From Candidatus Latescibacterota bacterium (GTDB lineage Bacteria > Latescibacterota > UBA2968 > GCA-2709665), in contig OZ250150.1 of the NCBI GenBank assembly GCA_965237675.1, positions 3,488,001 through 3,552,000 of the forward strand: a stretch of 64,000 nt of DNA. The letters are read 5' to 3'. The position numbers and the translations under genes were made by a program. This document shows, piece after piece, positions 632-48,293 of this stretch; within the stretch, counting starts at the first letter, position 1, and every line of letters starts with the position of its first letter. Under the pieces are notes generated by a model. The model worked only from the letters and a program-made list of their open reading frames with translations. It was not told where the DNA came from and did not search any database.

Positions 632-3319
632 ATGGGAGAACAGGCCTTGCTCGAAAAAAAGTACGATCCAGGGTCGGTTGAAAAGACCTGGTACGCCTTC
701 TGGGAGAAGAAGGGGTATTTCCGGCCGGAATATCGGGCCTGCGGAAGGCCGTATTCCATCACGATTCCACCGCCAAATGTCACTGGAGAGCTTCACATGG
801 GGCACGCGCTTCAGCATGCAATTCATGATGCGGTGGTGCGGTGGAAGCGAATGCAGGGGCACCGGACGCTCTGCCTGCCCGGTACCGACCACGCCGGCAT
901 TGCCACCCAGATGAAGGTTGAGCAGCAGCTTTTTGAGGAGGAAGGGAAGGGACGACACGATATTGGCCGGGAGGAGATGTTAAAACGGATCGGTGTCTGG
1001 AAACAAAAATACGGGGGAACCATTCTGAACCAGCTCCGGGAAATGGGTTGCAGCTACGATTGGGATCGGGAGCGGTTCACCATGGACCGTGGGTACGCCC
1101 GGGCGGTTTTGTCGGCCTTTGTGAGATTTTATGAAAAGGGATGGATCTACCGCGGTAAGCGGATGGTAAATTGGTGTCCGCGGTGCGGCACGGTCATTTC
1201 GGACCTGGAGGTGGAGGAGCGGGAACACGAGGGACATCTGTGGCATATTAGGTATCCGGGTCTGGAGGGTGCGCCGGACGTGGTGGTAGCCACGACGCGC
1301 CCTGAGACGATGTTGGGAGATACGGGTGTGGCGGTACATCCCGAAGACCCGCGCTGGCAGCGGGCGATTGGCCGCCGTGTCATGTTGCCGCTGATGGAGC
1401 GGTCGATCCCGATTGTGGCCGATCGGTACGCGAATCCAGAGATGGGTAGCGGTGCGGTAAAGGTGACGCCCGCGCACGACCCCAATGACTACGAAATCGG
1501 GTTGCGGCACGGGTTGCCGGAGATCCAGGTCATTGGATTCAACGGAGAGATGAACCACGAGACCGGTTCGTTTAGCGGCATGGACCGGTTCGCCTGCCGA
1601 GACGCGGTGATTGCGGCCCTGAAGGAATCGGGACTTCTAGAGCGAATCGAGGATTACGAACATATGGTGCCGCACCACGACAAGTGTGGCACTCCCATCG
1701 AGCCACTGCCGATGGATCAGTGGTTTCTGGCCATGAGGTCCCTTGCGGATCAGGCTCTGCCCGCTTTGAGGAAGCAGCAGATCAGATACGTACCCGATCG
1801 GTTTCGTGAATATTCCGTTGAGTGGCTGGAAAACATCCAGGACTGGTGCATCTCCCGTCAGATCTGGTGGGGACATCGGATCCCTGTGTGGACCTGTGCC
1901 GGCTGCGGAGAAATGCTTGTTCAGGTGGATGCACCCGTACGCTGCAATGCGTGCGGCAACGAAGCACTTGTGCAGGATCCGGACGTGCTAGACACATGGT
2001 TTTCGTCAGCTCTGTGGCCCTTCGCCACCCTCGGATGGCCGGAACCGGCAGAGGACCTGAAGGTGTTCCATCCAACCGATCTGATGATAACGGGCAGGGA
2101 TATTCTCTTCCTTTGGGTGGCACGGATGATCATGACGGCAGCGGAGTTTGTGGATGAGATTCCGTTCGGAACGGTATTTGTGCATCCGACCGTCCAGACG
2201 CGCGACGGGAAACGGATGAGTAAATCGCTGGGTACCGGGATCGATCCGAGGGAATTGATCGAACGGTACGGCGCGGATGCAACCCGTCTGTCGTTGCTTT
2301 ACCAGTGCGGCAGTTCACAGGACATTCGTTTCGACGCCGACGTCGTGGACAACCATATTCAGGATTCTCCTATAACAGAGTCCTGCAGAAATTTCTGCAA
2401 CAAGATCTGGAATGCGGCCCGATTTGTACAGATGAACCTTGATGAGGACGCCTTGAGATGCACAACGCCTCCGCCAGTGGCGCCTGGAGATCCGGCTGAT
2501 CGATGGATACTCAGCCAGTATAATCGGACGGTTCGCGCCGTGACGGAATCTCTTGAGGCGTATCGTTTTGACGAGGCATCCAAGACCCTTTACGAATTCG
2601 TATGGAACACATTCTGCGACTGGTACCTGGAGATCGCCAAAGTGCGGTTGAGTGACAATGACCGGGACGAAAGAGATAACGCACGGAGCACGCTGGTTCA
2701 TGTGCTGGAGGGCGCCCTGCGTTTACTTCATCCGATGGCGCCGTTTATCTCCGAGGCGCTGTGGCAACGGCTTCCTCACTCTGGAGACGCACTGATTGTT
2801 GCGAAATGGCCGGAGGTGAACTCGGAACGATTCGACGAGACCGCGGAGCGCGAGATGGCACTTCTGCACGAGGTAGTGGGTGCGGTAAGGAATATTCGCG
2901 GGACGATGCGGGTGCCGCCCGGCAAACGCGCGGATGTACTCCTGAAGGTGAATTCGGCCGAAATCGGGGAGATTCTGACCCGATTCGAGGTCTATCTTCG
3001 CGCACTCGCCAGGGTTGCGGAACTTCGGATCGGTACGGATATCACCCGTCTGCCGGCATCTGCCAGCGCCGTGTTGAGGGATGTCGAGATCTTCGTGCCT
3101 TTGCACGGTCTGATCGATCTCGACGTGGAGCGCCGCCGTCTGCGGAAGGAAATCGAGAAGCTGGAGGCGTTGCTGGGCGGGCTGGATAAGAAGCTCGATA
3201 ACGCTGGATTCCTGAATAATGCGCCTGCGGAGGTGGTCTCCCGGGAGAGGGGGCGTCACGCACAGTACCTGAATGCACTTGGCCGGTTGAACGACAATCT
3301 TGCCGCGGTGTTGTCCTGA
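632..3319 (+). CDS. valS: Valine--tRNA ligase
   Basis: PPPNVTGELHMGH (HIGH), RMSKS (KMSKS), DWCISRQIWWGH, C-terminal coiled coil; 895 aa. Confidence 0.97.
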   Translation: MGEQALLEKKYDPGSVEKTWYAFWEKKGYFRPEYRACGRPYSITIPPPNVTGELHMGHALQHAIHDAVVRWKRMQGHRTLCLPGTDHAGIATQMKVEQQLFEEEGKGRHDIGREEMLKRIGVWKQKYGGTILNQLREMGCSYDWDRERFTMDRGYARAVLSAFVRFYEKGWIYRGKRMVNWCPRCGTVISDLEVEEREHEGHLWHIRYPGLEGAPDVVVATTRPETMLGDTGVAVHPEDPRWQRAIGRRVMLPLMERSIPIVADRYANPEMGSGAVKVTPAHDPNDYEIGLRHGLPEIQVIGFNGEMNHETGSFSGMDRFACRDAVIAALKESGLLERIEDYEHMVPHHDKCGTPIEPLPMDQWFLAMRSLADQALPALRKQQIRYVPDRFREYSVEWLENIQDWCISRQIWWGHRIPVWTCAGCGEMLVQVDAPVRCNACGNEALVQDPDVLDTWFSSALWPFATLGWPEPAEDLKVFHPTDLMITGRDILFLWVARMIMTAAEFVDEIPFGTVFVHPTVQTRDGKRMSKSLGTGIDPRELIERYGADATRLSLLYQCGSSQDIRFDADVVDNHIQDSPITESCRNFCNKIWNAARFVQMNLDEDALRCTTPPPVAPGDPADRWILSQYNRTVRAVTESLEAYRFDEASKTLYEFVWNTFCDWYLEIAKVRLSDNDRDERDNARSTLVHVLEGALRLLHPMAPFISEALWQRLPHSGDALIVAKWPEVNSERFDETAEREMALLHEVVGAVRNIRGTMRVPPGKRADVLLKVNSAEIGEILTRFEVYLRALARVAELRIGTDITRLPASASAVLRDVEIFVPLHGLIDLDVERRRLRKEIEKLEALLGGLDKKLDNAGFLNNAPAEVVSRERGRHAQYLNALGRLNDNLAAVLS

Positions 3320-9417: not shown

Positions 9418-12149
9418 TCAATAGCTAAATGTCCGGTGCTCACACTGCTCACGATTTTCCAGGTTTCGGCGGGAATGGCATCATATCCGAGACCGCCGGC
9501 TTTCGTGTAGATCCTCGCGGACTTTTGGTCGGATTCAATGTGGACAATGGGGAATCCCGTGTCATAGGGTCCGCCCCGGACCAGTAACGTGTTGCCGATC
9601 AGATTCCTGTCTGGGAGCGGCCGGTCGATCCGGTAGAGGCTGTGTGCGTTATCGGTGATGACGTCCACAATTGCACCACCGAGAACCGGATGGTCCAGTT
9701 CGAGCACGTGGACGTTGAGGTTGGCCCGTGTACCGCCAAGAAGATAGGCAAACGCCAGGTCCCCGTTCGCCGCCAGTGAGAATACGGAAACACGGCCGTT
9801 TGTTTCAAGGGTTCCCTCCGGAGTTTCAAAAACAGCGGGTTGGCCGTCCGGACAGACGGCCACGAGATCCGTGCCCGATTCGCGGGTGACGAGGACACCC
9901 ACGGCGTCTCCGGCTCGGGGTACCAGGTTTTCCACCGCCCGAACGAATGGAAAGGAGCGGGGGCTGACGTCGAAGAGGCTTAAGAAGACGCTGTGGGCGG
10001 GTAACCCGGTGCGGCGGCGGATCACGTATGGGACGGTTTCGCCCGTTTGGATGTTGTCGCGGGAGCCTGTGCCCCGTTCGCCCCAGCCGTTTCCGATGAG
10101 CACCTGCTCGTCGCCGCAGGGCAGCGCATATGCGGTGAACCGCTGCTGGTCCATGTCGAAGTGGATGGACCAGGGAGTGTCGCCCTGACCGGTGGCCAGG
10201 TTCTCTAAATCGTGCCATTCGGTGTCGGTCGGCTGAAGGTCCAGGTTCCGGGTTCCGCCGCCGGCGACCGGGCCGTGGAACAGATAATCGTGAACGCGGC
10301 CACCGTTCACCCGAAAACAGTCGATCAGATAGCTGCCACCGCTGCCATGGTCGATAGTGGCGCACAGGCGATGATAGGTGTCGATATCGTAGGCCCGGGA
10401 AGAAACCCCTGCGACCTTCACGCGTCGGGTGCTGTCGAACAGGTGGAGGCTGCCGCCGCGGCCGTCGCGTTTCTGGTCTTGCCCGTCGACGATCACGGTG
10501 TTGTGCGCAATGGTTCGTACGGTATTGTGTTTGTCCGGCCGGTCCCAGAGGTACCCGAGGTCGGTAAGGGCTTGCTGTCCGTCTTTCCAGTAGACCAGGT
10601 TCAGGCTGTCTTCGTGGTGATGCCCGCCCCAGTCCGAGGCGCTCAGAAGCGCGGTACTCGCCCGTCCGTGTTCGCCTGTCCGCAGCAGGCCGATGCGCAG
10701 GGCCGGAAAGAACTGGTCGGTCAGGATCAGGGGAGCCAGCGGGTCGGCTCTCAAATCCGGGGCACGGTGAAAAAGGGCGTACTCCCCGCCGTAGTTTTCC
10801 AGATCGTATTCGCACAGTTCGGCAAGCAGGGCGATGTGGTTTGTGTCGCCGTAGCGGCTGGCGATTGTATCCGCAATGTCCACGGACATCCTGCATCCGG
10901 TTGCGTCATCAGCGATTACGCCATAACCCAGATCGGGCATCGGACTCTTGACATATCCCTCCAGTACCGAACGGTAACGACTGTCACCGTAAATGTCCAC
11001 GTTCTGCAGGCGGCATTCCGGCGAGTCGGATCCGTCCGAATCGGAATACCCGTGCACTGCGTCGGCGAAGTGGCGAATGCCGTTGAGCGTCATGAATCCA
11101 TATCCGGGCGATTCGGAACTCATGCCATCGTCCAGAAACCAGTTGTAGACGAAATGATTGAACCCGTCGAGGCCGTAACGGACCAGATCCGTATCGGCAA
11201 GACAAAGGCCGACCAGACCCGCGGCAGAGCGGTTGGTTGCGCTCTTATTGTTGAAATCCGGATCCGCGAGGAGAAGGACAGTGCTTTCCCGAAGGAGATC
11301 CCGTTCAATCCTGAGGCGGCATCCGGGTGTATAAACTGGACGGCCATCTGCTTCTGCTCCGCACGTGAGGTCGTAAGCGACGGTGACATCGGTAACAAAG
11401 GTGCCTTCCATTCCGACCCCCGTGGCGCGGCCAGCCATCCAGTAACCCACGTGTAGTCTGCCGTCCGGCCTGTTTGGCGGGACCACAAGTTCCGGTTTGG
11501 GCAGGTCAAGGATGTTTCTCGCGGCGACGTCAGCAGGCGCGTCGGAGAATTCACCATACCCGGAGTGAACCATGTAACCGGGATAGACGTCGGCGAATCG
11601 CAGGAGGATGTCCCGGGCTTTTTCGGCGTGGCCGATCTCTTGCGTCAGGGCATAGGCCATGGCACACTGACGTGCGATGCGCGCCATATGTTCGCATTTG
11701 CGGGCGCGGATATTGGCGGTCCAGGAGGAGACAAATGGAAATCCGATGAGGTCCCAGTGTTTTCCTGTATAGTACGTGATTTCCTGCCCGCCTCCGAAGT
11801 CGGTCTTGAACACGACGTCTTCGGGATAGTCGGAATGGGGATAGACGGTCTTGCAGGTCGTACAGACCAGTTGATCGGGACTCTCCGGCACCCATTCATA
11901 GTTTCCGTGCACAGGGGCCGCCTCGCAGGCGGGGCACATGGTAAAGAGGTGGCTGCCCGGTGTTTCCGGAGGAATCCAGTTTATGAGGTCGTCGACAGTT
12001 GTGTTGCTCATCGGAGCGACTGAGGACAGGAGATCCTCCAGAAACTGTCGTGCCCAGGCGTGACGTTCGATGTTCGCACGAGCGACTTCGATATCCCCTG
12101 CCTTAAACAGCGTGGCAGGGCGCCGGGTTGTATTTGCACTGTTCTTCAT
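9414..12149 (-). CDS. Heparinase II/III-family (oligo)saccharide lyase-like protein with N-terminal Cys4 motif
   Basis: GMSSESPGYG, GHHHEDSLNL...DLGY...TIAHNTVIVDGQDQ pattern; CPAC...CTTC; no obvious signal peptide. Confidence 0.75.
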   Translation of the reverse strand: MKNSANTTRRPATLFKAGDIEVARANIERHAWARQFLEDLLSSVAPMSNTTVDDLINWIPPETPGSHLFTMCPACEAAPVHGNYEWVPESPDQLVCTTCKTVYPHSDYPEDVVFKTDFGGGQEITYYTGKHWDLIGFPFVSSWTANIRARKCEHMARIARQCAMAYALTQEIGHAEKARDILLRFADVYPGYMVHSGYGEFSDAPADVAARNILDLPKPELVVPPNRPDGRLHVGYWMAGRATGVGMEGTFVTDVTVAYDLTCGAEADGRPVYTPGCRLRIERDLLRESTVLLLADPDFNNKSATNRSAAGLVGLCLADTDLVRYGLDGFNHFVYNWFLDDGMSSESPGYGFMTLNGIRHFADAVHGYSDSDGSDSPECRLQNVDIYGDSRYRSVLEGYVKSPMPDLGYGVIADDATGCRMSVDIADTIASRYGDTNHIALLAELCEYDLENYGGEYALFHRAPDLRADPLAPLILTDQFFPALRIGLLRTGEHGRASTALLSASDWGGHHHEDSLNLVYWKDGQQALTDLGYLWDRPDKHNTVRTIAHNTVIVDGQDQKRDGRGGSLHLFDSTRRVKVAGVSSRAYDIDTYHRLCATIDHGSGGSYLIDCFRVNGGRVHDYLFHGPVAGGGTRNLDLQPTDTEWHDLENLATGQGDTPWSIHFDMDQQRFTAYALPCGDEQVLIGNGWGERGTGSRDNIQTGETVPYVIRRRTGLPAHSVFLSLFDVSPRSFPFVRAVENLVPRAGDAVGVLVTRESGTDLVAVCPDGQPAVFETPEGTLETNGRVSVFSLAANGDLAFAYLLGGTRANLNVHVLELDHPVLGGAIVDVITDNAHSLYRIDRPLPDRNLIGNTLLVRGGPYDTGFPIVHIESDQKSARIYTKAGGLGYDAIPAETWKIVSSVSTGHLAID

Positions 12150-12338
12150 AAGGTTCTCGTTTGTTGGTTGAGGTCAATATTGTACGGTTGCCGGTGGCGA
12201 TTCCCGCGATGCCGGCATGCAGGGACCGGCGGGGTTCGGATGCGTCTATTCGATGTCGATGTCTCGTGGACGCGCTATTCCCCATGCTGCCTCCGCCGCA
12301 TTCGTCACGCGGATGACAACACCGCATCCCGCAGGATA

Positions 12339-13085
12339 TCATCCCCCTGCCCGGTGCAGAAAATCGGCGGCTCCCGCAGCGATCCACGGACCGATGTTGG
12401 TCAGCAGAAAGCGTGCGCCAAGGCCCGTGTATTTTTCTACATTACTGTTAACGGTCAGGGTGCCCGGCGTGCGTCCCGCGTCCCTGATCCGGTTGAGGGT
12501 TTCATCGACGGTGCGTTGTACGTCCGGGTGATCGTTGTTTCCGATATGGCCCATCGAGGCGGCCATGTCCGACGGAGCGACAAAGAAGACGTCGATTTCA
12601 TCCACGGCAAGGATGGTTTCCAGGTTCTGTACCGCGATTATGTCCTCGATGAGGACAATGAAGAGAGTCTCGTTGTTTGCGGCATGCAGGTAGTCGGGTA
12701 CGTCATATCCATGGCGGCTGGTGAAAAGGCCGCGTTTGCCCACCGGCGCGAATTTGCCGCCGTCAACGACGTTTCGCGCCTCCGCTTCCGTGTTGACATG
12801 GGGAACAACGATGCCCTGCGCGCCCCGGTCCAGCGTGCGGTATATGAGGGCCTGATCGTTGCGGTTGACCCTGACGATTGAGGTCATACCCCAGATATCG
12901 CAAGCCCTCGAGAGGTTGCCCAGGTCGGCCGCGTTGACCGGCCCGTGTTCGCCCTCGAGCCAGACACCGTCGAAGCCGGTAGGGCCAAAGGCATCGATGT
13001 CGTCGGGATGGGTCAGGCCGGCGATGACGCAGGCGATTCCGCCGTCAGCCAGTTTTCGTTTGACACGGTTTGGTCGGATCGTCAC
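12339..13085 (-). CDS. HpcH/HpaI aldolase family protein
   Basis: DGVWLEGEHG, LDRGAQGIVVPHV, LIEDIIAV, FVAPSDM; GTG start after AAAGGAG RBS. Confidence 0.9.
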   Translation of the reverse strand: MTIRPNRVKRKLADGGIACVIAGLTHPDDIDAFGPTGFDGVWLEGEHGPVNAADLGNLSRACDIWGMTSIVRVNRNDQALIYRTLDRGAQGIVVPHVNTEAEARNVVDGGKFAPVGKRGLFTSRHGYDVPDYLHAANNETLFIVLIEDIIAVQNLETILAVDEIDVFFVAPSDMAASMGHIGNNDHPDVQRTVDETLNRIRDAGRTPGTLTVNSNVEKYTGLGARFLLTNIGPWIAAGAADFLHRAGG

Positions 13086-13139
13086 GGGCGATTCTCCTTT
13101 TTGAATGGATCGACGAGTCATCAGAAGCTGACGACCCGT

Positions 13140-13925
13140 TCATGTTGAATGCGGGTTGCCGTACAGATCGATGCTGACGGGAGCATGGTCGGAAACGGTG
13201 AGACCGGCCTGGCGGTGTACGGCGGCGGAACGGAAATGTCTGGCGACAGTGGCGTTGCCGAGCAGGTAGTCGATTCGCCAGCCCCGGTCGAGTTCGCGGG
13301 CCCGCCCGCGATTGGACCACCAGGAATACGGACCCTGCGCATCTCCAAAATGCTGCCGGACAAAGTCGTTCCAGCCGGAAGCCAGGAGGTCGGTTATCCA
13401 CTGCCTCTCGTGCGGGAGGAATCCCGAGTTTTTTTGGTTCCCTTTGGCATAGAAGATGTCCTTTTCCGTGTGAGCAATGTTGAAGTCTCCACCGAGAATC
13501 ACGGGCTCGTCCCGAAGCGTGAAGTGCTTTGACCAGGGAAGAAACCGAGCCATCCAGAGATCTTCCTTGATCTTCTGGCGATCTTGGCTGGATGAGCCCG
13601 AAGGCAGGTAGACGTTTACGATGCGGACGCCCTTTACCCGCGCCTGGAGGATCCGCCCTTCCGGATCGGTCTCGTGAATGCCAGTGCCGAGGACTTCAAG
13701 CCGATGCCGGGACCAGATCGCAACTCCGGAATACCCTTTTCGTTCGGCGGGGTGCCAGTGGACATGCCAGCCGCGGGGATTGATCCACTCGTCGGGAAGT
13801 TGCTCGGGGAGCGCGCGGATTTCCTGGAGGAGAAGGACGTCCGGCGCGATCCGGTCGAGGTGTCGGGCAAAGCCCTTTCTGAGTGCGGCGCGCAGGCCGT
13901 TCACGTTCCAGGTGGTAATTCGCAT
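13140..13925 (-). CDS. xth: Exodeoxyribonuclease III (AP endonuclease)
   Basis: MRITTWNVNGLRA, LLLQE, GYSGVA, GDFNIAH, WRIDY, SDHAP; start set at ATG 13925. Confidence 0.95.
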   Translation of the reverse strand: MRITTWNVNGLRAALRKGFARHLDRIAPDVLLLQEIRALPEQLPDEWINPRGWHVHWHPAERKGYSGVAIWSRHRLEVLGTGIHETDPEGRILQARVKGVRIVNVYLPSGSSSQDRQKIKEDLWMARFLPWSKHFTLRDEPVILGGDFNIAHTEKDIFYAKGNQKNSGFLPHERQWITDLLASGWNDFVRQHFGDAQGPYSWWSNRGRARELDRGWRIDYLLGNATVARHFRSAAVHRQAGLTVSDHAPVSIDLYGNPHST

Positions 13926-13977
13926 GTACCAAACGCGGGGTGAGAATGTCGCCGGTTTGACAACGGCAGGTGTGGAT

Positions 13978-15849
13978 TTACACGAGGGCCGTTGCGACAC
14001 TGAGGGTTTGTGTGTTACGTGAGACGGTGATGCGGCCGTTTTCGGATCGGAACGCAACGTCCGCCGTGTCGCAGTCGATGCCAAAAGCAACTGCGAACCT
14101 GGCCCGGCCAGGTTGCAGGACGGTTTCGACTTTGAGGTATTCGACTTCCAGACTCTCGGCGTCGGCGTGCCCGGGCTTGAGGTCCTGGTGTTTTCCCTTG
14201 ACGAATGCGGTGTTTCCTGGGGTCAGCAGGCGGGTGTTCACAACTGTGTGTCCGGCCATGATTGTAGCCGAAGCGCCGGTCACCTCGGCCGCGCCCGCAA
14301 AGTGAATGCGGGACTCCATTCCGGTCGGGTCTGCGACTTCAATCTCGTCAATGACGACAAACAGATCCGGTCGCAGGTAGAGGAAATGACGGTCGAAGAC
14401 CGTGAGTTTGTCGATACCGTAAGCCGAGGCGATGGAAGCCCGGAGGTAATCGTGCGTGCCGGTGAGTTCGAACGTTTCCACGGTACCCACGAGGCGCCGT
14501 TCGCCGGGCTGACCGTGTCCGTCGAAGAGCGGAAGGTTGTGACCGTGGGTCGATTTGAAGATCCATTCGCCGGGGTCCCCGTAGCGTCCGATGCCGAGTT
14601 CACGGACGACGGTTCTGCGGCCGGCGTGGATAATATAGTTTCCTACGTCCGCGTGGCCGTGCGGTTCGACCGTGGCGCCGATTTTCAGCGCCATGATCGG
14701 TGCGTCGGGATCGCGCCAAGATCCGCGCATGACGCACCAGCCGGCGTCGGGAAAGTAGGCCGACGGGTGGGGCGGGGACGGCAACTCGGGAACGGTATTG
14801 GACGCATCCCAGAAAAGCTCCGCCAATTTCAGGGAAGGCCGCTGGTCCGTGGTGAGTCGATCGAAGTAGGCTGCGGCGCTGTGGCCGAATTCTTGCGAGA
14901 ACTTGCGGAAGGCCATACCTCCCGGGAAGTGTTTGCCGCAGTCGGCGAAGTTGACCACGCGGTCGGGCGGGAGAAAGCAGTTGATGGGAAAGTCGACCGT
15001 ATTCTTGAGTTTGGGATGATCGTAGAGGTTAATCTGTCCACCTGTGAGCCGCCTCAGTGCATCGGAAAAGGGGAAGGAAGTACTGATGCCGTAGTTCCAA
15101 TACCCCGGGCCCTCCTTCCACGAACCGTCGTTTTCGATGGCATCGTAGAATCTTGTAACACGTTCAACGCATTCCCGAATGACGCCGAGCATGGCTTCGC
15201 GAGCCCGAATACCCATCCGAAGATGGATATGTTTTGCATCGAGCATGCCAAGCGCACAGAGTCCCATGTTGGAGACGCAGACAGAACACCAGTTGCTGTC
15301 GTACCTCGTCGCCCAGAAGTGATGCTGCATGCCGTCGATGCAATGGGCCAGACCACGTGCAAAGATCATGTATTCGAGTTCGCGGCGCTGGTTTTCGGAA
15401 AGGGTGTCGTAAAGCAGGTCGTAAGCAGCGGCAAAACAGGTACAGGTATGGCTTCCGTCCAGATCCAGAAGCATGAATTCGTGGACCGGGTGAACCCAAG
15501 AGGGCCAACTCATCATTGAAGCAAGGCCCTCCCAGGCTTTTTCGAAGTAGGCTTGATTCCGGTCGATCGCATAGGCCAGCACATAGTCTTCGAGTAGGGT
15601 CCGGGCTTCGCCGGAAAGGCGGCTGTACGTTTCCCAGATGCCGTTCCGGTAGCTTTCCTCTCTGGGTGGCGGCATCGGGAACGGTTGATCGAGGCGGAGG
15701 TTGAGTTGGTCGCGCTTCTGCCTGTAGATTTCAGCATGGGTGCCGTCAAGGCAGAGTCCTCGCAGACGGTCAAGATCGGACCTGGAGAAGAAGAGGTAGG
15801 GATGTTCCAGCGTTTCGGGAATGAGACGGTCGACGTCGGGGACGGACAT
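13978..15849 (-). CDS. Heparinase II/III-family / oligoalginate lyase-like protein
   Basis: HPYLFF N-terminus, SNWCSV, DGSWKEGPGYWNYG, NFADCG, HGHADVG, STHGHNLP. Confidence 0.8.
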   Translation of the reverse strand: MSVPDVDRLIPETLEHPYLFFSRSDLDRLRGLCLDGTHAEIYRQKRDQLNLRLDQPFPMPPPREESYRNGIWETYSRLSGEARTLLEDYVLAYAIDRNQAYFEKAWEGLASMMSWPSWVHPVHEFMLLDLDGSHTCTCFAAAYDLLYDTLSENQRRELEYMIFARGLAHCIDGMQHHFWATRYDSNWCSVCVSNMGLCALGMLDAKHIHLRMGIRAREAMLGVIRECVERVTRFYDAIENDGSWKEGPGYWNYGISTSFPFSDALRRLTGGQINLYDHPKLKNTVDFPINCFLPPDRVVNFADCGKHFPGGMAFRKFSQEFGHSAAAYFDRLTTDQRPSLKLAELFWDASNTVPELPSPPHPSAYFPDAGWCVMRGSWRDPDAPIMALKIGATVEPHGHADVGNYIIHAGRRTVVRELGIGRYGDPGEWIFKSTHGHNLPLFDGHGQPGERRLVGTVETFELTGTHDYLRASIASAYGIDKLTVFDRHFLYLRPDLFVVIDEIEVADPTGMESRIHFAGAAEVTGASATIMAGHTVVNTRLLTPGNTAFVKGKHQDLKPGHADAESLEVEYLKVETVLQPGRARFAVAFGIDCDTADVAFRSENGRITVSRNTQTLSVATALV

Positions 15850-43020: not shown

Positions 43021-43716
43021 TTACGTTGACGGCACTGGCCAGTCAAAGCCGTAACCCACTCCCCTCACGGTGGAGATCGCGGCGCCAATGCCAGCCAACT
43101 TCGTACGGAGACGCGCGACGTGCACGTCTATGGTGCGCATCCCGCCGTGATAATCGTATCCCCAGATCCGGTCGAGCAGATCGGACCGCGTAAAGACGCG
43201 TCCGCTGTTGGCAACGAGGTATTTCAACAGGTCGTACTCTTTCAACGTGAGTTCAATCAGTTCGCCTCCGACGCGAACTTCAAAGCGCGCCAGGTCAATG
43301 ATCAGATCGTCTACCTTGATCGTGTGCTCGTCGTCTCGCCTGACGGCGCGCCACAGTGCCAGGCGCAGGCGAGCTTCCAGTTGACCGAGAGAGTAGGGCT
43401 GGATGATGAAGTCGCTTATCCCCGTGGAGAAGTCCAGGTTCGGGGCGCGTTCCTCGTCGGCGACCAACAGCACCGGGGTGTTCCGGGCCCGGGAAGTTCG
43501 TCGCAAATTCAGAACGGTTTCAGGCAGACGGTCCGGGAAGGATTCGTCGTCAACGACGATCAGGTCCGGGGGTTCGACCTGTACGCTGCTGGGAACCGGC
43601 GTGTCTCCGTGGCTCGGATTCCACGGGGGGTATGACACGGTATACCCGATCGATTCCAGGTCTGACTTCAGCCGGTCGCCATAATTTTTATCAGCCAGCA
43701 GCAGTATATTGGACAT
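43021..43716 (-). CDS. Orphan OmpR-family response regulator (GlnR-like)
   Basis: Atypical receiver; winged helix LTLKEYDLL, RVFTR, IWGYDY.GG.RTIDVHVARLR.K, TVRGVGY. Confidence 0.88.
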   Translation of the reverse strand: MSNILLLADKNYGDRLKSDLESIGYTVSYPPWNPSHGDTPVPSSVQVEPPDLIVVDDESFPDRLPETVLNLRRTSRARNTPVLLVADEERAPNLDFSTGISDFIIQPYSLGQLEARLRLALWRAVRRDDEHTIKVDDLIIDLARFEVRVGGELIELTLKEYDLLKYLVANSGRVFTRSDLLDRIWGYDYHGGMRTIDVHVARLRTKLAGIGAAISTVRGVGYGFDWPVPST

Positions 43717-44057
43717 AGCGTCGGCCTGGCGTCGTGTCGATGGCGCATCCGGGATCGGGACAAGGACCGGGTTCCACCCTGTCCCGTCCGAATTGAGACT
43801 TGCAATCCGCAAGTCGGAAAATTACAGCGCGGAGAGCAACGTTGTCAAGAATTATCTGGCCGTGGCGGGGTCCCGAAGCGCGGCGGATTTTTGGGATGGG
43901 AGGCAGGACGGCCGGGCTTCAATTCGGTTCGGATTGAGCAGGAAGAGACCGATACGTCTCGCGCTTTGAACCAAAGCCACATCTGCAACGGTTTATATAT
44001 TACGATATTCCGGCGCGAAGTCAATAAATTTAAATCCTTTAAAAACAATTTATTATA

Positions 44058-44175: not shown

Positions 44176-45189
44176 ATGGTCCCGAATCCGCATAGGTCCG
44201 AGCAGAAGCGATGTGAGGTTTGCGGGGTTGAGATTCCGACAGTCCGCATGGCAGAGGTGCCGGGCGTAATGAGGTGTGTGAAGTGTCAGAAGCTGCGCGA
44301 ACTGGGTAGACGATCCGACGTTGTTCAAAAGGGCCTGGTTGACCCGTCGTCGCCAGGTGAAGAGGAATCGGTGGAGGTAAGGGGGGATCAGGTCGTGTTG
44401 GGCAATTGGTCGGGGAGTTTAATGGAACTCGCAGGACGCGGCAGTCAGCTGATACGACTTGCGCGTATGGGCGACGTCAGCCGGGCTCGAGCGCTGGTGC
44501 AGGCGCTGCCGGTCGAGGAACAGGCGGCGTTGGTGGCGATGAGTGAAGAGCCCGAAGAGATGCTTTCGATGACCGGTGGAGACAGTTCCGGTGGACCCGG
44601 CTACAGCCGGCAGGTAGTGGAACTGCTGCCCACAGAGATTCTGGGAAACCTGATTTCAGTGAACCCGGACGAACGTAAGTTCAACACGGAACTGATCCGG
44701 GCGATGTCGCCGCCGGCTTTCCGGCGCGCAATGGCCGAAACCCTGGATCGAGTGGACGATTCCCGTTTGCGAACACGCGTATCCTGGGAGTGGCTCCAGG
44801 CCCTCGCCACACTTACGGATGTCGACCACCGGACAAAGTTGCTTCGCGCCGTGGATCCGGCCTTATTGGAGGATGCGCTGCTGGACCGCCAGACACATCT
44901 GGATTTGAACGCGGTCGTCGGCTTCGGCGGTTTTCAGGTGTATCGTTTTCGCCTCTTCTCGATCGAGGGGCTGGGCGGTACCCGCCCCAGCGCGTTCATC
45001 GACGATCCGGAAACTGGTATCGTGCTCGACGCGCTTTATGAAGCGTCGCCCGCCCTGCTTTCCAATATTATTCGCGTGGCCTGGGAACGAGGGAGGGACG
45101 ACGTCCAAGAGCAAATCACGGGTGAAACGCGCAAGCAGGAGTCGGCAGAGAACGGAGAGCAGACCAATGAGTGTTCTCGCACGAGTTGA
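44176..45189 (+). CDS. Hypothetical protein with N-terminal DksA/TraR-type C4 zinc finger fused to a helical domain
   Basis: CEVCGVEIPTVRMAEVPGVMRCVKCQ (C-x2-C-x17-C-x2-C); purine-rich RBS. Confidence 0.75.
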   Translation: MVPNPHRSEQKRCEVCGVEIPTVRMAEVPGVMRCVKCQKLRELGRRSDVVQKGLVDPSSPGEEESVEVRGDQVVLGNWSGSLMELAGRGSQLIRLARMGDVSRARALVQALPVEEQAALVAMSEEPEEMLSMTGGDSSGGPGYSRQVVELLPTEILGNLISVNPDERKFNTELIRAMSPPAFRRAMAETLDRVDDSRLRTRVSWEWLQALATLTDVDHRTKLLRAVDPALLEDALLDRQTHLDLNAVVGFGGFQVYRFRLFSIEGLGGTRPSAFIDDPETGIVLDALYEASPALLSNIIRVAWERGRDDVQEQITGETRKQESAENGEQTNECSRTS

Positions 45190-46075
45190 TTTTGAAAGTC
45201 TCAGGGGCGAGTCGGATGGGTTTTTGGGTCAGGCCATCACCCTGGGGGTAACGTATGGGAAACTGCCGGAACATACGCCGGACGCCCTGTTGGCCTATCT
45301 GCGAGCAGAAGGCACGAGGTTTGGACTGCGGTATCGCACAGGAATCGCAGTATCACGCGATGTACTCGAACGAGGGGTGCGCCAGGCGCTGGTCTGCCTG
45401 GAACTGGGTCTGATCGTCGCCGCGAAGGAAGACTTGAACCGGGCCGTGGAACTGCTTGCGGGGACCGATTTCGACGTGATCCGCAAACAAGGTTGGGAGG
45501 AAGCGTTTGTCCGCCTGGACGAGATGCGCCGAGTCTGCCGTTCCATAGCGGGGAGGCCTGAAGCGAATCTCCTGCAGGATTACAACTGGCAGATCGATCG
45601 TTGGTCCCGCATTGTCCAGGAGACGTGGACGGTTTCTGAGGGAGGGGATAACGACGAGGGTGAGATGCCGGTGGATCCGTTGCGGGACTTCGGGACGTTT
45701 CGAGAATTGCACGCCCGGTTTCGCTTTATCCGCCTTTTGCCGCCAGGGGTTTTGCGGGGTTTCGCGGAAGCTGTGAACGAGTGCACGTTCAGGGATTTCC
45801 TTCGACACCTGGTTCTGGCGCTGGCGCTGGACCTCAGGACGCTGGTCCCGACGTCAAGCCAGATAGCCGCATTCGAATCTGAATGTCTCGGGGACCGTGG
45901 GATGGCGGCCTGGGCGGGCGACAAGGTGACGACAAAAGCGAAGGAAATGGCACGCAGGGCGGTTGATGATTCCGGTTTACAGGTGCTGCTGATTCAGGAG
46001 GTGGAAGCGGAGATCGCTTCTCTTGAAGGGTGCTCTCACGATTCGCTATCCGGGTCTTTTGTGGCGGGCGTTTGA
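45167..46075 (+). CDS. Hypothetical all-helical protein overlapping the upstream gene
   Basis: Start MSVLARVDF after GGAG, overlapping the upstream 3' end; 302 aa. Confidence 0.7.
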   Translation: MSVLARVDFESLRGESDGFLGQAITLGVTYGKLPEHTPDALLAYLRAEGTRFGLRYRTGIAVSRDVLERGVRQALVCLELGLIVAAKEDLNRAVELLAGTDFDVIRKQGWEEAFVRLDEMRRVCRSIAGRPEANLLQDYNWQIDRWSRIVQETWTVSEGGDNDEGEMPVDPLRDFGTFRELHARFRFIRLLPPGVLRGFAEAVNECTFRDFLRHLVLALALDLRTLVPTSSQIAAFESECLGDRGMAAWAGDKVTTKAKEMARRAVDDSGLQVLLIQEVEAEIASLEGCSHDSLSGSFVAGV

Positions 46076-46083
46076 GCGGATCT

Positions 46084-46340
46084 GGCCGGCTTTGTCCGTA
46101 TGAGACACCCGAGGGGCCCAATATCGGGCGAATCCGGGTGTTCGCACTCGGGGCTGAAATCCGCAGCGGCAGGGTGACCACGGTAGGCGAAGGGCGGCCG
46201 TCGGTCTGGGGGCGTCGTTGGTTCCTTTTCTTTAGCACAACGACTGTAATCGGGTGTTGATGGGTGTGAATATGATGCGGCAGTGGTTGGAGCAGGACGA
46301 CCCCGCCCCGGCCGCTTGTGCAGACGGGAAACGAGCCTGT
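46084..46340 (+). pseudogene. Degraded fragment of a divergent RNA polymerase beta-subunit (RpoB)-like gene
   Basis: Frame 1 GRLCPYETPEGPNIG (46084-46128); frame 3 [27 protein letters not shown] (46203-46286, TAG at 46233 replacing Glu); frame 1 PLVQTGNEP (46312-46338). Same order as RpoB GRxCPIETPEGPNIG, ASLIPFLEHDDANRALMGxNMQRQ, PLVGTG. Confidence 0.85.
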
Positions 46341-46369
46341 GCCGATGCACGGGCCACATTTGGACCGCT

Positions 46370-47869
46370 TCAGGAAACGGATTTTCCGAAATGCCTGGCG
46401 AAGGCCAGAAAATCGGGGAAATTGACCTGACCGTCCCCATTCAGATCGAAGGTCGAATCGAAGTCGAGCGCGCCCTCCTCTCTGCCAAAATTCCGCGCGA
46501 ACAGGACGAAATCATTGAAATCCACCTGACCGCTGGCATCGAAATCGACGCTGATGATCGCCTCCCGCTCCCACGTGCGCATCCTGCCCATAAACGCGAG
46601 AATCGCTTCGGAATCGACGAAATCGTCACTTTCCAACATCAGCACGTCCCGCCCGTCTTGGGATACGGCAATTGATCCGGTGTCGGACGGATACTTCAAA
46701 GTGAGCAATTCACGATAGGCATCCACGAAGTCGTCCGCGTCGTCCTCCGTATCCCAACTCGTGTACACCAGAAGCAGCAGGTCCCGTCCGTCCCGCGACT
46801 GGAAGACCGCGTATCGGTCTCCGTTCCATCCTTGTGCCGCCGATTCACCGCGGACCTCCATGTCGAACTCGGCGAATACGATCCGCCACGTCAATTCTCC
46901 GATCGTATCCTCGTCCAGCAGCATCCAGTCGTCGAACAGACCCGCTTCCTGAAACGGCGGCCACGTAAACCGGTCCGGTTTTTCCCCGGTGACCCATTTT
47001 CCCGGATGCAGGATCTGTTCGGTCGAAACCGGGGGGTCCGCGTAGAGCCGGTTGACGGTGTTCCATCCGTACCCCTGAATCTGGTGGACAAAATTCATAC
47101 CGAAGATGTAGACGATGGCCTGCTGCAATATCATGAAATCAGGAAGTTTATCGATTGTCTGCAGTTCCTGTGGTGAACTGCCCTGCAATCTCGCAACTTG
47201 CTTCATCCCGCCCCGGAGTGACTCGACATCAAATCGCATCTGGCTTCCGATCATGCTCTGTAACAGCCCGCGTCCCGGCATCCGCCCATTGCGGTTGTTC
47301 AGGGCCCAGATGGTCTCGATGTACGTGGCCTCGCCCTCCCCGACCGCCTGGCGCGCGAGCTGTTCGTCGGAATTTAAAGAATCGACTTGCGCGGGCAGGT
47401 ATCGGTTCAGATCGAAATGCTGGTCCTGAAGACCATGGCAGAGTTCGTGAGCCAGAACAGCGTCCAGCACATTCTCAGGAAGGTTTTGCTTCAGGATGTA
47501 AAACCGGTCCACGTCGGGATCGTAATATGCGAGCGCGCCGGCTTGCAGAAACGTGAGTACCAGCGAGCGATCGAGGATGAACGCTCCGCTGTACAGCCCC
47601 AGTTTTCGAATCACGGGATCGTAATATTCCCAGTCCATAGCGGAATATTGCCGGTCGATCTGGCGTTCGGCGTACGCCTGAAACTCGGATGGACTCTGCA
47701 CCGCGACGTCGATGGACCACTTGAACTGCAGCCCCCGGATCTGCGAGATCTCTCCTTCAATCTGCCTGGCCCTGCGCCTGAGTTGAGCCAGACTCTGCGC
47801 CCTTGCGGGGACCTCCGAAAGGACGACTGCAAGACAGGCGAGCGGCGCCAGATATCGGATGAAGCCCAT
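46370..47869 (-). CDS. Secreted HExxH metallopeptidase-like protein with C-terminal EF-hand/dockerin-like repeats
   Basis: Signal peptide MGFIRYLAPLACLAVV..ARA; AHELCHGLQDQ, EGEA, PPVSTEQILHP, GWNGD; DFDASGQVDFNDF / DLNGDGQVNFPDF. Confidence 0.75.
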   Translation of the reverse strand: MGFIRYLAPLACLAVVLSEVPARAQSLAQLRRRARQIEGEISQIRGLQFKWSIDVAVQSPSEFQAYAERQIDRQYSAMDWEYYDPVIRKLGLYSGAFILDRSLVLTFLQAGALAYYDPDVDRFYILKQNLPENVLDAVLAHELCHGLQDQHFDLNRYLPAQVDSLNSDEQLARQAVGEGEATYIETIWALNNRNGRMPGRGLLQSMIGSQMRFDVESLRGGMKQVARLQGSSPQELQTIDKLPDFMILQQAIVYIFGMNFVHQIQGYGWNTVNRLYADPPVSTEQILHPGKWVTGEKPDRFTWPPFQEAGLFDDWMLLDEDTIGELTWRIVFAEFDMEVRGESAAQGWNGDRYAVFQSRDGRDLLLLVYTSWDTEDDADDFVDAYRELLTLKYPSDTGSIAVSQDGRDVLMLESDDFVDSEAILAFMGRMRTWEREAIISVDFDASGQVDFNDFVLFARNFGREEGALDFDSTFDLNGDGQVNFPDFLAFARHFGKSVS

Positions 47870-47882
47870 ACGGATCCGACCC

Positions 47883-48293
47883 TCAAGTCCCGGATTCTTT
47901 CTCAGCGGCGCGGTGGCGGGCCTCCCGGCCCTTTTCGGGGGTGGAATCTTTAACGAGGCCGTAGGATTCCCTGCCTTCGTGTCCTTCCGGCAGGTATTCG
48001 GTGATGGGCAGGCCTTCGGGGGTAACAAAGAGCAGGCAATGGCAGTACTTGTAGATTTTCATCTCGTCGCAGGCGCAGATCCACTCTCTGCTGCGTTCGA
48101 GTTCCGCTTTCTTGTCAGGGTAAAAGTTGCATGGGCACAGGGGACGGCCGAGTTCGTCGACGTGTGCGGCCAGACCGTTGACAACGGCTTCCGTGATGCC
48201 CCGGTCGGGATGGCCGGTCGTGCCGGTTTTCTCGCAATATTTCTCAAAGTAGACCCACATTCGCTTCAGACTTTTTTCCGATGGCTGGTCCAT
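47883..48293 (-). CDS. Ferredoxin-thioredoxin reductase catalytic (beta) subunit-like protein
   Basis: GRPLCPC...WICAC..M..YKYCHCLLF. Confidence 0.9.
   Translation of the reverse strand: MDQPSEKSLKRMWVYFEKYCEKTGTTGHPDRGITEAVVNGLAAHVDELGRPLCPCNFYPDKKAELERSREWICACDEMKIYKYCHCLLFVTPEGLPITEYLPEGHEGRESYGLVKDSTPEKGREARHRAAEKESGT

Follow-up and report, generated by a model that had tools for sequence, protein, structure and literature searches.

Dead relic of a gene for what looks like a new compact single-chain RNA polymerase, possibly sigma-dependent, in a bacterial chromosome

To our knowledge, bacteria are taught as having one RNA polymerase core, with the exceptions of phage and plasmid enzymes and of full-length rpoB duplicates. 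Polypeptides in which beta is followed by beta' are represented by the NCBIfam models NF011417 and NF007172, which we take to be the fusions of Helicobacter and Wolbachia. Among the smaller enzymes, YonO of the SPbeta prophage is presented, in the accessible part of its report, as a single-chain RNA polymerase homologous to the multi-subunit RNA polymerases (PMC5467207). Furthermore, Orf6 of the yeast killer plasmid pGKL2 is a 982-amino-acid Rpb2::Rpb1 fusion according to the available text of PMC2919709.

The window analyzed here, a stretch of 64,000 nucleotides, carries a scrap of about 290 bases of a broken gene. It is a dead relic, a pseudogene fragment, and a functioning gene is absent. 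Judged by its sequence, the window holds a fragment of the gene of a compact fused beta-beta' polymerase and not a member gene of that family. An example of an intact member is P0002, the 1,041-amino-acid protein of the related genome G028, of which the N-terminal half is RpoB-like and the C-terminal half RpoC-like. Like canonical RpoB and RpoC, the compact protein is homologous in both halves, keeps the fork motif, GDK..RHG.KG and DFDGD, and gives a model that superposes on beta chains. Unlike them, it is one chain of about 1,040 amino acids, compared with about 1,270 and 1,380 amino acids for the open frames of the host, and P0002 scored 168.6 and 105.6 bits with the NCBIfam rpoB and rpoC models, for which the cut-offs are 801 and 963. 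The order of beta and then beta' in one polypeptide is shared with the NF011417 and NF007172 fusions. However, these models span 2,839 and 2,890 positions with all domains, and the compact protein scored 172 and 164 bits, where 4,632 and 5,372 are required. No NCBIfam model was passed by the compact protein.

Compared with YonO, the family shows a likeness of design only, namely a mass of about 100 kDa, a single chain, both barrels and no flap-type insert, as far as the accessible part of PMC7824862 describes that enzyme. YonO is phage-borne and a very distant homolog of the multi-subunit enzymes, whereas the compact family is chromosomal, plainly of bacterial type and paired with a sigma gene; the two are set apart here by the description in the available text. 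Similarly, Orf6 of pGKL2 has beta-like and then beta'-like sequence in a chain of about 1,000 amino acids, with about half of the coding sequence deleted (PMC2919709, available part). By the same partial description, Orf6 differs from the compact family in its eukaryotic descent, its linear cytoplasmic plasmid and its lack of a sigma factor. Moreover, the killer-plasmid and cellular enzymes retain a flap-type insert, as stated in the accessible text of PMC7824862, and the compact family is without it. NCgl1702 is of similar design in the part of PMC2919709 at hand, but the compact family differs from it in being chromosomal, near to bacterial beta and beta', flapless and sigma-linked. The second rpoB of actinomycetes, for example of Nonomuraea, is likewise a second beta-type chromosomal gene beside the housekeeping one; in the accessible part of that report, however, these paralogs form a second host polymerase and not a fused, trimmed enzyme with its own sigma (PMC5431353). 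No description of the compact family was found in the full-text literature; with subscription journals and supplements beyond reach, an earlier description is possible. The compact beta-beta' polymerase with its own sigma is thus apparently undescribed.

The features of the locus, in window coordinates, are as follows.
44176 to 45189, plus strand: intact gene for a 337-amino-acid DksA/TraR-type zinc-finger protein (PF01258, E 2e-5, at the cut-off)
45038 to 46075, plus strand: intact gene for a 345-amino-acid protein, family not recognized; left syntenic neighbor of the sigma/polymerase pair in relatives
46076 to 46369, plus strand: whole remnant, the 294-nt gap separating two conserved convergent genes
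46084 to 46194, plus strand: block 1, frame 1, like residues 185-221 of P0082 and 191-226 of P0003
about 46190 to 46200, plus strand: first frameshift, at the left edge of block 2
46194 to 46310, plus strand: block 2, frame 3, like residues 224-262 of P0082 and 230-267 of P0003
46233 to 46235, plus strand: in-frame TAG, replacing the Glu of 'LEH' in the compact family and RpoB
46297 to 46338, plus strand: block 3, frame 1, like residues 258-271 of P0082 ('LVQ.GNEP')
about 46297 to 46310, plus strand: second frameshift, from frame 3 to frame 1
46370 to 48028, minus strand: convergent gene for a 552-amino-acid protein, bounding the remnant on the right

A preliminary description of this DNA had reported three RpoB-like blocks interrupted by two frameshifts and one TAG, and the same were seen when 45700-46800 was retranslated in three frames, with the blocks collinear at 46084-46338. 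Frame 1 from 46084 translates as GRLCPYETPEGPNIGRI..., and the counterpart of this block in RpoB is the 'GR.CP.ETPEGPNIG' motif of the fork domain. Frame 3 from about 46194 gives a 27-residue RpoB-like block with the TAG inside it at 46233-46235, and block 2 carries the signature 'PFLEHND.NR.LMG.NMMRQW'. Frame 1 from about 46297 reads ...PLVQTGNEP and ends at 46338. The surviving stretch comprises about 87 contiguous codons from the middle of the RpoB-like half, and its lesions are the two frameshifts and the one stop. The sigma gene and about 185 codons are missing on the 5' side of the relic and about 770 codons on the 3' side; more than 90% of the polymerase gene is deleted, and the sigma gene too. 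No sigma gene lies between 46075 and the relic, where about 10 nt remain, and the relic is without a full-length frame carrying both barrels (GDK..RHG.KG and DFDGD). The interval 46076-46369 is all that survives of a sigma and fused-polymerase pair that takes about 3.8 kb in relatives.

Contigs from four runs in four studies were compared with the window over 45900-46500, and zero indels were listed. Two of the contigs were identical across the whole interval and one across 45900-46439, and the fourth consisted of two pieces of about 200 nt with 1 and 6 substitutions; one of the four runs may itself be the source of the assembly. The TAG letters at 46233-46235 were identical in the contigs of all four runs. 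Because these contigs reproduce the letters, the stop and the frameshifts belong to the organism and are not assembly errors, as the preliminary description had asked to be checked. For the annotation of the host genome the consequence is small: what lies here is a piece of a pseudogene, for which the label rpoB is inappropriate. The list of runs also gave small shares in RNA runs labelled sponge metagenome, which carry no weight here for habitat or expression.

The zinc finger encoded at 44176-45189 is N-terminal and of the C4 type, and the NCBIfam TraR/DksA models remained below the cut-off. This gene is the first of a syntenic block, with an orthologous arrangement in the genomes G028, G008, G012 and G015. 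Just upstream of it lies a gene for an OmpR-type response regulator (43021-43812, minus strand; Trans_reg_C, E 5.6e-25). The 345-amino-acid gene was matched in 36 of the 40 relatives, including all 14 of the same genus. It adjoins the polymerase locus in G028, and the coordinates place it there in G019 and most genomes of the genus g6 as well. Its product had no Pfam, NCBIfam or PADLOC match, and the Protein Atlas gave no usable match. The 552-amino-acid product has a weak metallopeptidase-like match (DUF6782/YgjP-like, E about 0.04) and an EF-hand/dockerin-like C-terminus, and its gene is kept as the right neighbor in G008 and G012.

In G028, the order is the zinc-finger gene (344 amino acids), a 320-amino-acid gene, an ECF-type sigma gene (204 amino acids) and the 1,041-amino-acid polymerase gene. 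The window keeps orthologs of the first two, and the relic starts about 10 nt past the stop of the second. Its place matches the chromosomal position of the intact sigma and polymerase pair in related genera, where the left neighbor of the pair is a gene for 320-345 amino acids. In G008 and G012, both of the window organism's genus, only unrelated DNA of about 403 and 105 nt separates the 345-amino-acid ortholog from the convergent gene seen in the window; homology to the window breaks off with the stop codon of the former and returns where the latter ends. The zinc-finger and 345-amino-acid genes are not tightly tied to the polymerase, because they persist after its loss and are replaced in the Latescibacterota and Caldilineaceae loci.

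Very probably, the stretch is the non-functional remnant of a gene whose product was a compact RNA polymerase of about 1,040 amino acids, a single chain with two barrels, made of a trimmed RpoB-like N-terminal half and a trimmed RpoC-like C-terminal half. The sigma and polymerase pair would have been inherited at this locus and then deleted in the line of this species, and the loss is taken to be fairly recent, given that the identity between the surviving blocks and intact proteins is still 53-69%. Other lines have probably lost the pair independently as well. G015 is of the same family as the window organism but of a different genus; after its copies of these two genes, all that is left of the polymerase is two C-terminal fragments. 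G019, a congener of G015, has an intact polymerase gene. The G015 relic (L125, G015:C1:638500-644500, 2794-3071) adjoins the zinc-finger gene and a 307-amino-acid gene. Its fragments resemble the G017 protein over residues of about 885-915 and 1000-1045, and the deletion here took the sigma gene and about 885 codons. C-terminal partial copies alone were also seen at G077:C2:2438881-2439582 and G135:C1:3423468-3424367. The scraps in G015, G077 and G135 therefore suggest that the pair was repeatedly lost by deletion at the locus, with different scraps surviving.

Instead of decay in place, a piece of a compact-polymerase gene could have been acquired laterally, for example from co-resident carriers, and inserted between the convergent genes; we consider this improbable. 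DNA and protein searches found no trace of the polymerase gene in the 14 other genomes of the genus, which fits such an acquisition, and because none of these congeners carries the gene, decay in place needs several losses within the genus or late retention here only. Moreover, at the DNA level block 2 shares 79-81% identity with genus g6, which is of another family, and 73-75% with genomes of the window's own family, in a comparison that spans only about 85 highly constrained nucleotides. Possible donors also co-occur, as other contigs in the same runs match only 46248-46286 and have flanks that read like an intact g6-type gene. On the other hand, the fragment stands right after the 345-amino-acid gene, on the same strand and exactly at the position of the gene in relatives, which would be a coincidence under random insertion. 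In addition, a repeat search found no repeats or mobile-element marks flanking the relic, and block 1 is nearer to the short-form protein P0082 (68%) than to the g6 member P0002 (57%). The contigs with intact g6-type flanks were seen in runs X1, X4 and X8, where they match this 39-nt core at up to about 85x word depth; because they co-occur in the runs, organisms with the intact gene share samples with the window organism.

The decay of an inherited compact-polymerase gene was also compared with an origin from the host's own rpoB. The housekeeping rpoB (C1:3333427-3337248) lies 197 kb upstream of the relic and is intact, its open frame having 1,273 codons. When the host RpoB was used as the query against the whole 5.6-Mb genome, three matches were obtained, namely rpoB and two relic blocks (E 8.8e-4 and 0.02), whereas compact-family queries found the relic blocks at E 3.5e-10 and 2.7e-5, or 1.1e-10 and 2.6e-6. 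No other compact-family fragment was found in the whole-genome family search, in which only rpoB and rpoC matched besides the relic. Block 1 aligned to P0082 with 68% identity and without gaps (53.1 bits, E 1e-14) and to P0003 with 53% identity (E 4e-12), compared with 46%, 37.4 bits and 13 gap positions for the host RpoB. Block 2, with the TAG read through as X, was 54% identical to P0082 (51.2 bits, E 6e-14) and 63% identical to P0003 (58.2 bits, E 2e-16), compared with an alignment of only 28 residues (42.7 bits) to the host RpoB. Block 3 matched P0082 ungapped (64%, 21.6 bits, E 0.003) and residues 274-302 of P0003 at E 4e-4 with an 11-residue gap, which reflects the long form of P0003. 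Overall, the alignment of the relic to residues 185-271 of P0082 and 191-302 of P0003 is collinear and nearly free of gaps, with better scores than on canonical RpoB; on the host RpoB, the two relic blocks lie 60 residues apart.

The spacing from ETP to NMMR, earlier put at about 57 codons, was measured as about 56 (E at 46102, N at 46269); it is 58 in P0082 and P0003 and 122 residues in the host RpoB (E345 to N467 of P0001). The relic is accordingly without an Rpb2_45-type domain, having about 56 codons from fork to barrel against the 122 residues of the host, and so departs from housekeeping RpoB as defined by TIGR02013 and by PF04563-PF04565, PF10385, PF00562 and PF04560. The earlier view that an intervening domain is missing was right as to the short spacer, but the spacer is a trait of the compact family. 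The short-form members P0057 and P0082 have the same short MMRQW-LVQTG link as the relic, and because they share its spacing, no internal deletion is needed. The residues previously noted as odd (NMMRQW and HND) are invariant or nearly so in the compact-family alignment; of the relic's signatures, HND, MMRQW and LVQTG.EP all fall in such columns. A duplicated piece of the host rpoB with an internal deletion and point changes can hardly be credited: the host RpoB detects both blocks, with 46-64% identity in the conserved cores, but the compact family scores higher and ungapped, the residues that diverge from RpoB are family invariants, and the spacing fits that of intact homologs. The proposal of a separate, shortened beta-like paralog distinct from the housekeeping rpoB is thus upheld. 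The contrary outcome, with the host rpoB as the best match and no intact homologs with the short spacer, was looked for, and the opposite was found.

It is extremely unlikely that the remnant was retained for a new role as a short peptide, a 3' UTR or terminator of the convergent genes, or a small RNA. In favor of such a role, two plus-strand terminator-like hairpins (46040-46056 and 46208-46226) and one minus-strand promoter-like site were seen, compared with shuffled-sequence averages of 0.8 and 0.1, and ORFs of 76 and 58 amino acids overlap the remnant. However, consensus scans give no evidence of function, there was no Rfam match at E up to 1, and the remnant is not conserved as a feature, being absent from the two closest genomes (G008 and G012, with unrelated DNA).

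The intact relatives of the vanished gene were then of interest in their own right. In another family of the order, DNA matches to the relic (about 80%, equally short in spacing) lie within long intact ORFs. Full-length members were found in 20 of the 40 relatives, that is, in all 16 g6 genomes, in G038 with two copies, and in G017, G019 and G020. In addition, 66 of 167 other genomes of the phylum had a family match at E up to 1e-60, distributed over the families f1 (3/21), f2 (25/31), f3 (2/3), f4 (33/76), f7 (1/1) and f9 (2/2); in the same search, the eight other families of the phylum gave zero matches. The preliminary description had called for intact homologs with the short spacer and with the double-psi barrel or beta' parts, and both were present: the two barrel motifs are kept and the beta' half is fused. 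By the sequences of these homologs, the paralog is a beta-beta' fusion with an ECF-type sigma gene of its own, which goes beyond the earlier reading. The suggested non-canonical polymerase system in this lineage stands for the related genera, where it is intact, but it has been lost from the host genome itself.

Beyond the phylum set, loci were found in MAGs labelled Candidatus Latescibacterota and Caldilineaceae, besides Candidatus Poribacteria. The contig scan gave 4 family members among the best 80 loci listed, from which close relatives of the window were possibly excluded, and it serves for names and not for counts. Proteins labelled Gemmatimonadota, Armatimonadetes and Poribacteria matched as well, every one annotated as 'hypothetical protein', and the family spans MAGs of Latescibacterota, Chloroflexota and Armatimonadetes. 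A search of 1.84 billion cluster representatives was headed by proteins of nearly full length (about 980-1,100 amino acids), together with fragments, and long canonical fusions (for example, of 2,309 amino acids) appeared only from E of about 1e-124, far below the family members. No full-length member was found in 50,697 phage or 72,556 plasmid records; 33 and 68 records matched, none with a query cover of at least 80%, and the annotated ones listed were canonical rpoB-rpoC. Among the best 80 IMG/VR loci, with 21-36% identity, there was no full-length member either. Many of the IMG/VR loci L126-L205 carry beta-like and beta'-like stretches of 3.7-4.4 kb that align with family residues of about 170-978; presumably, these are phage multi-subunit RNA polymerase genes outside the compact family. 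PADLOC-DB 2.0 returned 0 families for the four proteins (polymerase, sigma and the two neighbors).

The Pfam matches of P0002 were Rpb2_6 (3.9e-40), Rpb1_2 (7.7e-15) and Rpb2_3 (1.6e-4), and there was no Pfam match to Rpb2_1, Rpb2_2, Rpb2_45, Rpb2_7, Rpb1_1, Rpb1_3, Rpb1_4 or Rpb1_5. By Pfam and alignment, the beta lobes, the fork-barrel domain, the flap and the N-terminal clamp of beta' are absent, and only about 10 residues stand at the position of the RpoB flap insert. What remains of beta' is largely the barrel, the bridge region and a conserved short tail at the C-terminus, with nothing past the C-terminal motif; over residues 890-978, the protein matches cyanobacterial rpoC2 models at their start. 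When 11 members were combined in a profile, it matched solved chains of bacterial beta at E 1.4e-71 and of beta' at 3.7e-48, and its N-terminus aligned weakly to the start of beta. DFDGD, which we take to be the metal-binding aspartate triad, and GDK..RHG.KG do not vary in any of the 11 sequences; across 63 sequences, they are invariant or conserved to at least 90%.

The AlphaFold2 model from 63 sequences is a confident single globule (pLDDT 93.4, pTM 0.92) and supersedes a run with 11 sequences (pLDDT 57.4, pTM 0.45). Its top 50 Foldseek matches in the PDB were all RNA polymerase beta chains, with E down to 5e-24, and these together with all 60 listed PDB profile matches were cellular or plastid RNA polymerase chains. 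In the model, a helical hairpin (596-632) immediately precedes the beta'-like barrel and presumably represents the clamp helices, on which sigma region 2 docks; a helix of 32 residues (961-992) is what we take to be the bridge helix. From the conserved sequences and the model, we infer that the intact family is a predicted active DNA-dependent RNA polymerase.

An ECF-type sigma gene lies directly upstream of the polymerase gene in six of the seven loci examined, in three phyla according to the labels; in the seventh it is one gene removed. The polymerase-linked sigmas are 46-69% identical to each other across phyla, which fits co-inheritance. The sigma encoded upstream probably directs the compact polymerase to promoters. 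In canonical RNA polymerase, the flap docks sigma region 4; because the compact family is without a flap, sigma use is not to be assumed. A complex prediction of the sigma with residues 540-1041 scored 0.32, compared with 0.00 for the best of three controls, and weakly supports an interaction (partner pLDDT of at least 63, contact agreement of at least 26%). Of 80 solved complexes, 58 reached that mark, as did 2 of 110 mismatches, but only 7 of the 80 did so at 0.60 or below. Because sigma-beta' complexes are already solved, the prediction may have passed through likeness alone. A P.WMI motif in the linker between regions 2 and 4 was seen in the sigmas at L018, L034, L030, L047 and L046 and is kept across phyla; as a sequence motif, it might be a family-specific contact.

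The intact system looks like a new, predicted compact single-chain RNA polymerase and is possibly sigma-dependent. A wider reading stands at about an even chance. It holds that the pair is a self-contained second transcription machine, in which bacterial beta and beta' would have given rise to one chain of about 115 kDa, stripped to the two barrels, the fork, the bridge helix and a clamp-helix-like hairpin; this chain would reach promoters through an ECF-type sigma of its own that is inherited along with it, with no alpha, omega, flap or full trigger loop, and it would be chromosomal in several little-studied phyla and repeatedly lost. If this reading is true, it would be the smallest sigma-dependent cellular-type RNA polymerase. 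What sets the family apart is that beta and beta' are cut to about 40% of their combined length, fused, chromosomal and accompanied by a dedicated sigma gene, and that it is kept both in those 66 phylum genomes and in at least three other phyla. If active, the enzyme would define by experiment which parts of the bacterial core can be spared in sigma-dependent transcription, and it would offer a small orthogonal polymerase/sigma pair for engineering. Its activity would also raise the question of which regulon needs a private polymerase and why its loss is so frequent.

The exception to the gene order is the locus of G040 (L017, G040:C1:3958000-3974000), where a gene for a 620-amino-acid ABC transporter (11990-14344, minus strand; ABC_membrane and ABC_tran) lies between the sigma and polymerase genes; the longest sigma ORF there has 157 amino acids, with a partial region 2 match. 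Furthermore, the copy number and the decay of the polymerase gene vary widely within the phylum. The two full-length copies of G038 (G038:C1:1427405-1430590 and 3368600-3371737) are 49% and 42% identical to P0002. In five g6 genomes (G034, G022, G035, G027 and G023), the query matched two overlapping pieces, of about 9-491 and 471-1041, in a single open frame of 1,055-1,130 codons, which suggests an insertion or a short duplication near residue 480 in these members.
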